From assembly GCA_000004695.1 (NCBI GenBank), contig CM000155.2:3538380-3602379 (forward strand): a stretch of DNA of 64,000 nt, written 5' to 3'. Position numbers and translations under genes: made by a program. Below the pieces are notes generated by a model. It did not search any database and had not been told where the DNA came from. It worked only from the letters and a program-made list of their open reading frames with translations. Source of the stretch: Dictyostelium discoideum. Taxonomy: Eukaryota. Below are positions 14,926-19,703 of this stretch, piece by piece. How positions within the stretch are numbered: the first letter of the stretch is position 1; each line of letters opens with the position of its first letter.

Positions 14926-15322
14926 ATGTCATCAACTAATAATAGCCCAACAAATGTCGGTAGTAAAGAATCTATAAATAATACTAGTAATTTATCATCA
15001 ATATCAAATACATCAAATATATCATATGATAAATTATTATTACTCTGTTCAACATGCCACCAAAAGATTAACCAAGATGTGAAAGAATTAAATGAAAAGG
15101 TATTGCCGGGATTCCATGATTTAAAATATTCATTTACATGTAAATCATGTAGTTCTTCAAAAAGTCCAATTCTATTTCACCTTGGTAAATCTTGGAAATG
15201 TGTAATTCACACTGCATTATATAATATGGAAAGACAAAGTAATCAAAGATTCTTTCACCATTCTGACGTAACTAACTATGTTACAAAATATCCAAATGTT
15301 TTTTTACATGATAAAAGTTTAG
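14926..15322 (+). CDS. exon 1 of the RS/poly-N protein with triple Cys4 + winged-helix modules
   Basis: ATG at 14926. The donor is tta g|gtaatatt at 15323. The exon length is 397 = 3n+1 (phase 1). It encodes the first CxxC…CxxC module and the KSWKCVIHTALYNM winged-helix-like motif. Confidence 0.7.
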
Positions 15323-15423
15323 GTAATATTTTATTTTTTAATATTAATTTTTTTTGATTATTATATTAATATAATTTTTTTTTTTTTTTTTTTTTTTTTT
15401 TTTATATATATATATATTTATAG

Positions 15424-18400
15424 CTGATATTTCAAAAGCTGTATCGATGGCTTTTTTCAATAATAAAAATTATTTTGTGTCAGGAGGTCCATACACTGGA
15501 AAATGGGCTAATCCAAAACCATCAGATGTTGCTGATTTAGATGGCATGGAAAATATTGATTCTCCACCGTCAAACATGAGTGACTATAACCATAATATTA
15601 TGAATAATAACAATAACAACAACAATAATAATAATAATAACCATCACAGTAATAATAATAATAATAATAATAATGTTAGTAATATTAATAATCATAGTAA
15701 TAATCATTATAATAATAATATTAATAATAACAATAGTAATAACATTCATAACAACAATAATAATAATAATAATAATAATAATGATAAAGATAATAGAACC
15801 CAATTAATAAGTCCAAGTAGATCTAGATCAAGAAGTAGATCAAGATCAAGATCGAGAAGTGGCAGTGCATATAGTGGTATAAGTGGTAGATCTAGATCAA
15901 TTTCTTCTCCTAGCCAAAGTCCAAGAGGTAGAGGTAGGGGTAGATCAAGATCAAGAAGTGGTAGTAGATCAAGATCACTATCAAATAGTAGCCAAAGTAG
16001 ATCAAGATCAAGAAGTGTTTCTTTAAATAATAATAACAATAATAATAATAATAATATTAATATTAATAACAATAACATAAATAATAATAATAATTATCAA
16101 AATAATCGTGGCCGTGACCGTGATCGTGATCGTGACCGTGACCGTGATCATCATAACCACCATAATCGTAATAATCAAAGAAATAATAATAGTAATAATA
16201 ATAATAATAATATTATGAGTAATAATAATAATAATAATAATAATAATAATAATAATAATAATAATAATAATAATAATAATAATAGTAATAATAGTAATAA
16301 TAATAATAATAATAATAATAATATTGGATCACCATCAAGATCACCATCACATGAATCAAATAGTGAATCTGATATTTCAGATTCTGAATCATACTTAGTA
16401 AAGAAATATATAATATGTTCAATGTGTAAAGAATGCTATTCATTTGATCCATCGTTTAATCGAGTTGCACCTGGTCCATTCGATAAAAACTATGACTTTA
16501 TCTGTAAATATTGTTGTATTGATGGTGCAAATAATAACAATAACCAAAATCCCGATCAATTACCATTACCAACCACACCAACATTAAAACATCATCCAAA
16601 ATCATGGACTAAAATGATTCATACTGCCATTCATAATTTGGAGATGGAGAAAAAAGTTAGATTCCATTCAAAGAAAGATATCTATCAATTCATTTCTTCA
16701 AATCCAAAGGACTTAATGATTGATTCAAAACAAGAGATTACCCCAGCAGTCGTTAACTATATCTTACAATCTGGTAGAAGTTTATTCATAAATTCTTTCA
16801 TTAATCCACGTCTATGGTGTAATAGAAAGAAATCTGATAAGGTTGAAACTGATCAACGTGGTATTTTATTATTAACAAAAGAAATTTCTAAAAAAAGATC
16901 TTATTCTGAATTAGAAGAATCAAATAATATTAATAATAATAATAATAATAATAGTAATAACAATAATAATAATATTATTAATAATAATAATAATAATAAT
17001 AATAATAATAATAATAATAATAATAATAACAGTGGTAATAATAGTAATAATAATGATAATTTTAATGATAATAATAGTAATAGTAATAATAATAATAGTA
17101 ATAATAATAATAATAATAACAATAATAATAATAATAATAATAATTTAAAAGAATTAAAACAACCAAATTTAAATAATTTAATTGTAAATTCATCAACATC
17201 AGCAACAACAATTAATTTAATAAAATCAACTGGTATTGTAAATTCTGGAAATGTTGCAATTCAAAATATTAAATTTACACCATTGATTTGTAATGGTTGT
17301 AAGAATGTATTCCCAAATGCTGCATCTGAATTATTGGATGAACATCCTGGTATGATTATTCCAAGTCATATAGATAAACGTTATACATTCACATGCTCAA
17401 ATTGTAGTGATAAGAAGGTAAATACTTTAAATCATTTACCAAAATCCTGGAAAGTCATTGTACATACAACTCTTTATAATTTGGGTATAATTAGTGGTCA
17501 AAAGTTTTCTTCAAATAAAACACTCTACTCTTTTATCTCTGATAATTCAAATACATTGCTTTTGGGTGGTAAAACCATCGATTATTTAAATAAGAATTTA
17601 TCTGGTGTACTCTCCTCCTATAAGAATCTTTTCTGTTCAAGTGGTAGAAATATGTGGGGTAATGTTTCACAATATCAAGAAAATGATCCAAAAAATAAAT
17701 CTTCTTCCTCTTCAATGATGCATGATCCAGATGATGATGATAGAAATTCTGATGATGAATATGTTGGTTCAATTTCAAATCATCATCACCATCATCAATC
17801 TTCATCTTCATCTTCATCATCATCATCTCATAAAAAGAAAAAATTAAAAACAAATAATTTAAATATTAATAATAATAATAACAACAACAATGATAAGATG
17901 ATGATTGATGATGCTGAAACTATTTCATCACAAAGTTCACCAATTTCTTCTACAAATGTTTTAAATAATTCAAGTTCAAAGATTTTATTAAATTCAAATA
18001 GTTTCAGTTCAAAAAGAATTCAAGATGATGGTATTAATCTATCAAGTTCTTCAAATTCAATAAATAACAATAGTTCTAAAAAAGAACAACCAACTTTACC
18101 AATAATTCAAAATAATTCAAATATTAATAATGGTAATAATATTAATAATAGCGGTAATACTAATAATAGTGTTAATAATATGAATATTAACAATACTAAT
18201 AGTAATAATAATAATAATAATAATAATAATAATAATAATAATAATAATAATAATAATAATAATAATAATAATAATAATAATAATAATAATAATAATAATA
18301 ATAATAGTATTAACACTGGTAATAATAATAATAATAATAATAATACCAATAATAATAATGTTAATAATAATAGTAACAATAATAATAATACCAATAATAA

Positions 18401-19703
18401 TAATAATAATAATAAAAAGAATTCATTTTCAATGATTTCATCAAATAATAATAATAATAATAATAATAATAATAGTAATTCAATATTTTCATCAATACCA
18501 TCACCACCATCATTTAAAGGAAATGGTAGTAGTACATCATCAATTGATTTAGTAAATAATAGTAAACAAAATTATAAAAATCAACAAAATGAAAAACAAG
18601 AGAAAGAGAGACTTGAGAAATTAGAGAAACAACAACATTTACAACAACAACAACAAATTAAACAATCGAGCCAACAACCATTATACGATGATGATTTTGT
18701 TGATGAAAATATTGAAATCCTATTTCATGATGAGAGAATTCAAACATTAGTAGGTTTCCAAATTATTAATATAAAGAGTGATTTGAAATCATTGAGAAAA
18801 GAAATTGATGATATGGAAATTCCAGAATTAAAAGGTTTGGAATTTAGATTCATGTTAAAAAAAATTCCAATTTCTTTGAAACAAGAATCAAATTATATTA
18901 TTAAAGATTGTTTATTCTCAATGAATGGTAGAATTACAATTGAAATTAGATCAATCATTCCAACAATTGTTTCTGCTACTCCAACAAATGCAACTCCAAT
19001 TAATAATAACGGTGGTGGCGGTGGTGTTAATAGTGTAAATTTAATGTCACCTGCTCAAACTCCAAAGAACTTATCTTTACAATCTCCAACACCTTTCAAT
19101 ATTTCATCGGTTCCTGATTTATCTGCACTTGCCAATCATCCATTATTGTTATTATTATCACAATTTGCAAACCCTTCAAATTCAACAACTCCAATTCAAT
19201 CAACACCATCCCAACAATCTCAAACTTTACCACCACCAACACAACAACAACAACAACAACAACAACAACAACAACAACAACAACAACAACAACAACAACA
19301 ACCACAAGAACAACAACCACAAGAACAACAACCACAAGAACAACAACCACAAGAACAACCACAACAAACGCAATCAAATAATGAAAATAAACCAAAAAAA
19401 GTGACATCTGATTTAAAAGAACATGATGTACCTTCTTCAAGTTCAAAGTTAAAAAATATTCCAATTTCACCATCTGGTAAAGAACAAATTGTAAATAATA
19501 ACAATATTGATGTCAATATGAAAAATAATAATGTAACTGATGATGATGATGAAGATGATGAGGATGAATATGATGAAGAATATGATCAAGTTCCAAATAA
19601 AAATAATAAAGAAAATAAAGAAACATCACCAACAATAAAAAAAGAAGATAGAAATCATGAATCAAATTCCAATTCTCAACCAATTGGAATTGCTATTAAT
19701 TAA
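15424..19703 (+). CDS. exon 2 of the same gene (1426 codons): RS/RG/RD dipeptide repeats, poly-N, poly-Q, two more Cys4 + winged-helix modules, acidic tail
   Basis: The acceptor is tttatag| at 15422-15423. g+ct gives Ala, and the frame continues …ADISKAVSMAFFNNK into the ATG (15447) of the 1418-aa ORF. The 101-nt intron (15323-15423) is more than 90% AT. The exon contains SRSRSRSRSRSGS, RGRGRGRSRSRS and RDRDRDRDRD tracts. Confidence 0.7.

Follow-up and report, generated by a model that had tools for sequence, protein, structure and literature searches.

A Dictyostelium discoideum gene predicted to encode three ASH2L/Polycomb-like PHD–winged-helix modules

We analyzed a 64,000-nucleotide stretch of the Dictyostelium discoideum genome (GenBank assembly GCA_000004695.1, contig CM000155.2, forward-strand positions 3,538,380 to 3,602,379; hereafter the window, whose own numbering is used for all coordinates) and focused on a plus-strand gene between positions 14926 and 19703. 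Its predicted 1558-residue product carries three copies (M1, M2 and M3) of a module that we identify with high confidence as the PHD–winged-helix (PHD-WH) unit of ASH2L and of the Polycomb-like (PCL) proteins. Taken as a whole, the locus is probably one two-exon gene for a nuclear, chromatin-associated scaffold whose three PHD-WH modules would confer multivalent DNA binding. An earlier reading of the window by a model that ran no database searches (the original prediction) had described three zinc-ribbon and winged-helix modules here, embedded in a protein with arginine-serine (RS) dipeptides, and had called this domain organization undescribed.

Gene Structure

The gene comprises two exons (14926..15322 and 15424..19703), with an ATG at 14926 and a stop codon at 19701-19703:

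14926..15322, plus strand: exon 1, residues 1-132 and the first base of codon 133
15323..15423, plus strand: intron of 101 nucleotides (nt), GT..AG, 97% A+T, phase 1
15424..19703, plus strand: exon 2, residues 133-1558 and the stop codon

An open reading frame (ORF) listing presents the locus as two frames, one of 143 codons from the ATG at 14926 and one of 1418 codons from 15447 to the stop at 19701-19703. Removal of the intron fuses both in frame through an alanine codon (G from exon 1, CT from exon 2) and yields a protein that is 25% asparagine and 14% serine, in a window with a G+C content of about 22%; a long A/T-rich region lies upstream of the ATG. Exon 1 encodes a Ser/Asn-rich N-terminal leader, the zinc knuckle of M1 and helices 1 and 2 of the M1 winged helix, and the alignment of M1 with M2 and M3 runs uninterrupted through the splice junction. 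Orthologues from three further dictyostelid genera (Polysphondylium violaceum, Tieghemostelium lacteum and Acytostelium subglobosum) all carry VFLHDKSLADISKAVSMAFFNNK across the junction position. In genomic DNA, a 77-nt GT..AG intron interrupts the T. lacteum orthologue after VFLHDKSL, at the matching codon and in the same phase, and the A. subglobosum orthologue is intronless at the junction, with HDKSLADISK encoded contiguously. These comparisons indicate that the intron is real and that the locus is one two-exon gene in D. discoideum. The exon coordinates and the 101-nt intron between the two ORFs had been given correctly by the original prediction, as borne out by the in-frame joining, the T. 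lacteum intron and the A. subglobosum read-through. Exact database look-up of the spliced 1558-residue protein, of the 1418-residue ORF and of the 143-residue exon-1 ORF returned no match.

Three Copies of One Module

The three modules lie as follows:

15022..15527, plus strand: M1, residues 33-167, with the intron inside; knuckle cysteines C41, C44, C72 and C75 (15037-15159); winged helix at residues 87-167
16392..16838, plus strand: M2, residues 456-604; knuckle cysteines C464, C467, C493 and C496; winged helix at residues 524-604
17259..17678, plus strand: M3, residues 745-884; knuckle cysteines C755, C758, C790 and C793; winged helix at residues 805-884

In each module an invariant CxxC…CxxC precedes a winged helix with the pattern KSW…HTxLxNL, with CxxC pairs starting at residues 41/72, 464/493 and 755/790 and KSW at residues 88, 525 and 806. 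The copies are about 135-150 residues long and, aligned over their full length, about 30% identical across some 130 residues. BLASTP likewise relates them to one another (M1 versus M3, E = 4e-20; M2 versus M3, E = 2e-16), so by sequence comparison the repetition is far above chance. Twenty-one positions are invariant across the three copies, including the four cysteines, KSW, HT, an N and the C-terminal F…W-x-N. None of the four cysteines varies in any dictyostelid module, whether from the orthologues (12/12) or from the paralogues, or anywhere in a 43-sequence module alignment. M2 is distinguished by a 25-residue Asn/Pro-rich insert between its zinc knuckle and its winged helix, and ends with a conserved LWCNRKK. 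The modules are basic (isoelectric point 9.1-9.3, net charge +7 to +8) and are joined by low-complexity linkers of 290 residues (M1-M2) and 140 residues (M2-M3); a six-frame check found no further copies in the window outside the gene. The three homologous CxxC…CxxC and KSW units had been noticed in the original prediction, and all three peptides that it quoted are found, as are its SRSRSR, RGRG and RDRD tracts. Its unit length of about 90 residues was too short, and the stretch that separates the first CxxC from F-x-CxxC, given there as 18-24 residues, measures 23-29.

Identification of the Modules as PHD-WH Units

Profile searches connect the modules to two groups of chromatin proteins. Among PDB sequences, a profile of the three copies matched MTF2/PCL2 (5xfr_A, residues 174-295, E = 1.7e-10), Drosophila Pcl (5OQD, 3.4e-5), PHF1 (2e-4) and ASH2L (3RSN, 0.03), and each match spans the second half of the PHD finger together with the winged helix. 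Searched exhaustively with HMMER, a set of 1.84 billion representative proteins yielded 98 matches to the profile. Pfam domains in the 90/98 that lie outside the dictyostelid families were led by ASH2L-like_WH (35), PHD (30) and PHD_ash2p_like (19); the same 90 also contain Tudor_2 (13) and Mtf2_C (12), which mark PCL proteins, and SPRY (5), which marks ASH2. Other module relatives carry GNAT, zf-4CXXC_R1, Chromo or PEHE. When the 12 orthologous dictyostelid modules were compared by hhalign with each group over about 120 columns, they scored 99.4% (E = 3.7e-21) against the ASH2 group and 99.0% (E = 5e-18) against the PCL group; the two groups score 99.8% against each other. The Pfam cut-off for PF21198 is passed by the intermediate relatives P0014 and P0016-P0018. 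A word-indexed homologue search with the three-module profile had a 152-residue D. dimigraforme fragment as its sole match, and M2 alone gave no match; in some runs M1 was cut at the exon boundary.

In a canonical PHD finger, an H-x2-C comes after the first CxxC. This motif occurs in 46/73 non-dictyostelid modules and in none of the dictyostelid modules, and no CxxC lies upstream of the first CxxC in the modules of the protein. The cysteines that are kept correspond to PHD ligands C3, C4, C7 and C8 only, so one zinc site is predicted per module. The PHD finger of ASH2L has been described as an atypical fold with a single zinc (PMC5415848). The Cys4 element, with half the ligand set of a PHD finger, is therefore better read as a degenerate PHD finger with one zinc site, of the ASH2L type, and the "zinc ribbon" of the original prediction was dropped.

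An AlphaFold2 model of M3, built from the 43-sequence alignment, has a predicted local distance difference test score (pLDDT) of 92.8 and a predicted template modeling score of 0.87. It contains a short beta/alpha zinc knuckle, helix 1 (SWKVIVHTTLYNLGII), helices 2 and 3, and a beta-hairpin wing; as modeled, this knuckle sits against a winged helix of forkhead/H1 type, and the two form one rigid basic unit. In a Foldseek search with this model the top 16 matches were all MTF2, PHF1, Pcl or ASH2L (E = 1e-6 to 5e-4, TM about 0.6-0.68), beyond which came generic winged helices at E > 0.04. The H15/forkhead-like winged helix of the original prediction is therefore right at the fold level. Its placement of the KSW…YNL motif on helix 3 had to be abandoned, since in the model KSW..HTALYNL forms helix 1 and (F/I)Y(S/Q)FI forms helix 2.

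ASH2L, in its N-terminal PHD-WH domain (PDB 3RSN, 3S32; PF21257 and PF21198), likewise places a single-zinc Cys4 atypical PHD directly before a forkhead-like winged helix, and both it and the dictyostelid modules lack H-x2-C and have a wing of the G-x-W type. ASH2L differs in having one module, followed by SPRY and a DPY30-binding region, and in being a COMPASS core subunit, whereas the D. discoideum protein has three modules, an RS tract and another kind of C-terminal domain, with no SPRY found by Pfam in the whole protein; identity to ASH2L in structural alignment is only 15-17%. The SPRY domain of ASH2L mediates RbBP5 binding (PMC4298132). In PCL proteins, where PHD2 is joined to an "extended homology" winged helix (MTF2, 5XFR; PHF1, 5XFN-5XFQ; Pcl, 5OQD), the zinc element and winged helix occur in the same order and with the same packing, and the equivalent of PHF1 Lys269 is retained in the modules as a basic residue (R/K-F). 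However, PHD2 of PCL proteins is a complete C4HC3 finger with two zincs, of which the D. discoideum modules keep half. The defining set of PCL domains is Tudor, PHD1, PHD2, the winged helix and a chromo-like domain that binds SUZ12 (PMC8864842); Pfam found no Tudor, PHD1 or Mtf2_C chromo-like domain in the whole protein. In PHF1 and MTF2, a Lys-Lys pair in wing 1 contacts CpG (CGG) (PMC9122586). With the domains that define PCL and ASH2 missing, the protein is placed by its sequence in the PHD-WH domain superfamily and in neither the PCL nor the ASH2 protein family. The combination of zinc element and winged helix is accordingly a known one, already solved in ASH2L (3RSN, 3S32) and PCL (5XFR, 5XFN, 5OQD).

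FOX and linker-histone H1/H5 globular domains lack the N-terminal zinc knuckle, their identity to the modules is 4-16%, and neither Forkhead (PF00250) nor Linker_histone is matched by Pfam in the whole protein. In a metagenome protist protein (P0010), the winged-helix half of a PHD-WH module (residues 267-338) scores above the Pfam Forkhead cut-off (29.2 versus 27 bits), a hint that forkhead domains and ASH2L-like winged helices may be related in sequence.

Conservation and Domain Layout in Dictyostelids

The rest of the protein contains the following regions:

15810..16016, plus strand: RS-dipeptide tract, residues 262-330; 20 Arg and 31 Ser in 69 residues, RGRGRG included
16107..16148, plus strand: RD-dipeptide tract, residues 361-374
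17724..17849, plus strand: acidic stretch, His/Ser runs and basic HKKKKLK, residues 900-941
18684..18962, plus strand: conserved C-terminal domain of about 95 residues, residues 1220-1312
19095..19166, plus strand: short hydrophobic motif FNISSVPDLSALANHPLLLLLSQF, residues 1357-1380, recognizable in all three orthologues
19242..19367, plus strand: poly-Q/PQEQQ repeat, residues 1406-1447, of low complexity and without conservation

The orthologues (1038-1168 residues, all recorded as "hypothetical protein") share a single layout: M1, RS tract, acidic Ser-rich stretch, M2, M3, acidic-then-basic patch, C-terminal domain and hydrophobic motif. The RS tract, with 32 RS/SR dipeptides within 69 residues in D. 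discoideum, lies between M1 and M2 in all of them (P0002, P0003 and P0004). The acidic-then-basic pattern follows M3 throughout, and its HKKKKLK region in D. discoideum (residues 900-941) is a candidate nuclear localization signal by sequence. M3 is the best conserved module, at 77-87% identity in the three orthologues, and the segment GGKTIDYLNKNLSGVLSSYKNLFCSSGRNMWGNVSQ, from its helix 3 and wing, is the same in the four genera. A tree brings together modules of like position from different species, and the triplication is therefore older than the split of the sampled dictyostelid lineages; the comparison indicates that the RS tract between M1 and M2 and the C-terminal domain, too, predate the radiation of these dictyostelids. 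Gene order also agrees with T. lacteum, where a giant minus-strand gene lies upstream and a minus-strand LYR gene downstream.

The C-terminal domain has invariant G-F, L-R, F, I-x2-K-Q-E, C and R positions. It is common to P0002-P0004 and, outside dictyostelids, was met only in two metagenome proteins, P0009 and P0099; P0009 combines it with two modules and a chromodomain. Searches of PDB sequences, with the single sequence and with a five-sequence profile, gave no match, Pfam returned noise only, and a word-indexed search gave one 100-residue metagenome protein. Residues 1220-1312 may represent an undescribed interaction domain.

The nearest sequence relatives outside the orthologue group (P0005-P0008 and P0011-P0018; profile E = 1e-58 to 1e-11) have the same single-zinc module. 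They differ in having one or two modules and in carrying Chromo, CDCA7-type zf-4CXXC_R1, PEHE or RAMA domains, all absent from the D. discoideum protein. P0005-P0008 form a second, likewise unannotated dictyostelid family (A. subglobosum, D. purpureum, T. lacteum and H. album) with two adjacent single-zinc modules and a Cys-rich C-terminus weakly matching zf-4CXXC_R1 (CDCA7-type); a D. discoideum member is expected outside the window. The closest non-dictyostelid relatives have one module with Chromo and zf-4CXXC_R1, some with PEHE or RAMA in addition, and include P0011 from the amoebozoan Arcella. An Acanthamoeba protein with Chromo and a class II zf-4CXXC_R1 has been noted previously, with the PHD-WH module unmentioned (PMC9915587).

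The combination of three modules, a conserved RS tract and the C-terminal domain in one protein is apparently a new arrangement of a known building block, and we found no description of a three-module protein of this type in the literature searched. The claim of an undescribed domain organization therefore apparently stands for the three-copy layout with its RS tract and falls for the zinc and winged-helix unit itself.

A Proposed Multivalent DNA-Binding Role

Characterized relatives of the module bind DNA: the helix-wing-helix domain of ASH2L does so weakly (PMC5870349), and the winged helices of PCL proteins also bind it, non-specifically in the case of Drosophila Pcl (PMC9122586, PMC8864842). 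By analogy with the reports on ASH2L and Drosophila Pcl, each D. discoideum module would bind DNA weakly, with hardly any preference for sequence and without reading CpG. Three such modules on long, flexible Asn-rich spacers could then achieve a multivalent, high-avidity grip on DNA or nucleosomal linker DNA. The RS tract would serve as a phospho-regulated interaction region, the C-terminal domain might recruit a partner, and the protein would act outside the PRC2 (Polycomb repressive complex 2) and core COMPASS roles of its metazoan relatives. We rate this mechanism as such, in which weak modular binding adds up to avidity, at even chances or slightly better. The nuclear, nucleic-acid-binding role that the original prediction suggested seems plausible from the basic isoelectric point and charge of the modules and from the chromatin domains of their relatives; partner domains fused to related modules are Chromo, zf-4CXXC_R1, PEHE, GNAT, Tudor and SPRY. 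A precedent for the bridging of DNA segments is a protein with several H1-like winged helices and flexible basic linkers in one chain, although it has no zinc knuckle or RS tract, is far smaller and is not homologous in sequence, so that the analogy extends to mechanism only.

Several observations weigh against this picture. We infer DNA binding, zinc binding and nuclear location alike from sequence. Pfam matched nothing in the whole protein at E <= 0.1; among single modules the best match was PHD_ash2p_like (E = 0.021, 15.1 bits, cut-off 28), and none matched ASH2L-like_WH. With the three internal copies only, AlphaFold reached a pLDDT of 38, and a good model needed PCL/ASH2 sequences; since the alignment behind the M3 model held such sequences, the fold match agrees with the sequence homology and is not independent of it. 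The module wings (SSGRNMWGN, SGGPYTGKWAN and NSFINPRLWCN) are about five residues shorter than those of PCL proteins and have no Lys-Lys pair, so the PCL mode of DNA binding is not simply transferable, and their helix 3 has no marked basic character. An RS tract, moreover, is a typical feature of proteins in RNA processing, which leaves room for RNA or protein ligands.

A more far-reaching version of the proposal is speculative, and we hold it to be unlikely. The protein would be a chromatin architectural factor independent of PRC2 and COMPASS, a multi-headed analogue of linker histones whose three H1/forkhead-like modules on flexible linkers bridge or coat linker DNA and whose RS tract couples it to the phosphorylation or RNA-processing machinery. 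If this were true, PHD-WH would already have served on its own as a DNA tether in the common ancestor of amoebozoans and opisthokonts, before its ASH2 and Polycomb-like use.

Rather improbable, in our estimation, is an SR-like RNA-processing or speckle protein in which the RS tract is the main element and the winged helices bind RNA or proteins instead of DNA. The density of this tract and its conserved position in all orthologues are what such a protein would have; yet Pfam finds no RRM or other RNA-binding domain in the whole protein, RS tract notwithstanding, characterized relatives of the module bind DNA (PMC5870349, PMC9122586), and the partner domains of relatives are chromatin readers and writers rather than RNA-processing domains. 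A sequence-specific transcription factor is decidedly improbable. Here helix 3 of each winged helix would read a motif, the three modules together recognizing a composite site, as might be suggested by the Forkhead-scoring module of P0010 and by the identity of the helix-3 and wing region of M3 in four genera. However, the protein itself has no Forkhead match in Pfam, DNA binding by ASH2L is only weak (PMC5870349), PCL proteins use the wing and not helix 3 (PMC9122586), and the sequence of helix 3 in the modules is poor in basic residues.

The two family-level alternatives fare worse. That the protein is an ASH2-family paralogue inside Set1/COMPASS, helping to tether the H3K4 methyltransferase to DNA, is very improbable: its modules are of the ASH2L single-zinc type and align best by hhalign with the ASH2 group, but it lacks both SPRY, the domain that binds RbBP5 in ASH2L (PMC4298132), and any other Pfam domain, and H3K4 methylation in D. 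discoideum falls severely when a distinct Ash2 is knocked out (PMC13186565). Orthology to ASH2 is rejected on account of the missing SPRY and the separate Ash2 (PMC13186565). We give scarcely any credence to a D. discoideum orthologue of Polycomb-like (PHF1/MTF2/PHF19/Pcl) recruiting a PRC2-type H3K27 methyltransferase to DNA, which the top PDB sequence and fold matches (MTF2, PHF1 and Pcl) would favor and which is largely refuted by an architecture with no Tudor, PHD1 or chromo-like domain (no Pfam match to Tudor, PHD or Mtf2_C), a half-PHD zinc element, no basic pair in the W1 loop and a slightly better hhalign match to ASH2-type modules, in an organism reported to lack polycomb-like proteins and in which an H3K27me3 role is unlikely (PMC13186565).

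Neighboring Genes and a Related Locus

Other genes and ORFs noted in the window are as follows:

3259..12447, minus strand: 3062-codon ORF upstream of the gene; the giant minus-strand gene at this place in T. lacteum has a 3857-residue product
20014..20274, minus strand: Complex1_LYR protein (PF05347, E = 6.3e-9); a LYR gene also lies downstream of the T. lacteum orthologue
20477..20902, plus strand: SDHAF2/Sdh5 flavinator (PF03937, E = 7.9e-25), identical to D. discoideum AX4 XP_628896.1
36085..39684, plus strand: 1199-codon ORF in the sole G+C-richer part of the window (0.32-0.37), with strong strand skew; the ORF contains a few ambiguous bases

The LYR and SDHAF2 genes stand head-to-head with their start codons about 200 bp apart; they may share a bidirectional promoter, and both may encode mitochondrial assembly factors. 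Judged by eye, the ORF at 36085..39684 looks like the endonuclease and reverse transcriptase of a TRE-like non-LTR retrotransposon.

In D. dimigraforme, a locus on JBTAPM010000043.1 (L001, 7404..9317) holds only the 3′ part of the gene (M3 and the C-terminal domain), at 84% nucleotide identity to window positions 16935-19241 and with both domains split over frames. It lacks M1, M2 and the RS tract, a profilin gene lies immediately upstream, and the annotated 152-residue product KAN0040254.1 is pieced together from parts of M3. Possible explanations are a truncated pseudogene, a partial duplicate, a rearrangement or an assembly error.

Significance

A fold and, by sequence homology, a likely activity can now be assigned to a conserved dictyostelid family that is "hypothetical" in public records and goes undetected by Pfam. 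The use of the result lies in annotation and in the evolutionary history of the ASH2/PCL module, and it opens no long-standing question. D. discoideum is genetically tractable, with an insertion-mutant library among its resources, and lends itself to direct tests of the prediction. The Dictyostelium genome is also extremely AT-rich and would thus offer little CpG to a PCL-type reader; the dictyostelid modules could reveal an ancestral, CpG-independent binding mode of the winged helix. Finally, the ASH2L/Polycomb-like PHD-WH unit occurs here in multiple copies and in new combinations, in an organism reported to be without Polycomb-like proteins, so the module is older and more widely used than its two well-studied metazoan contexts would imply.

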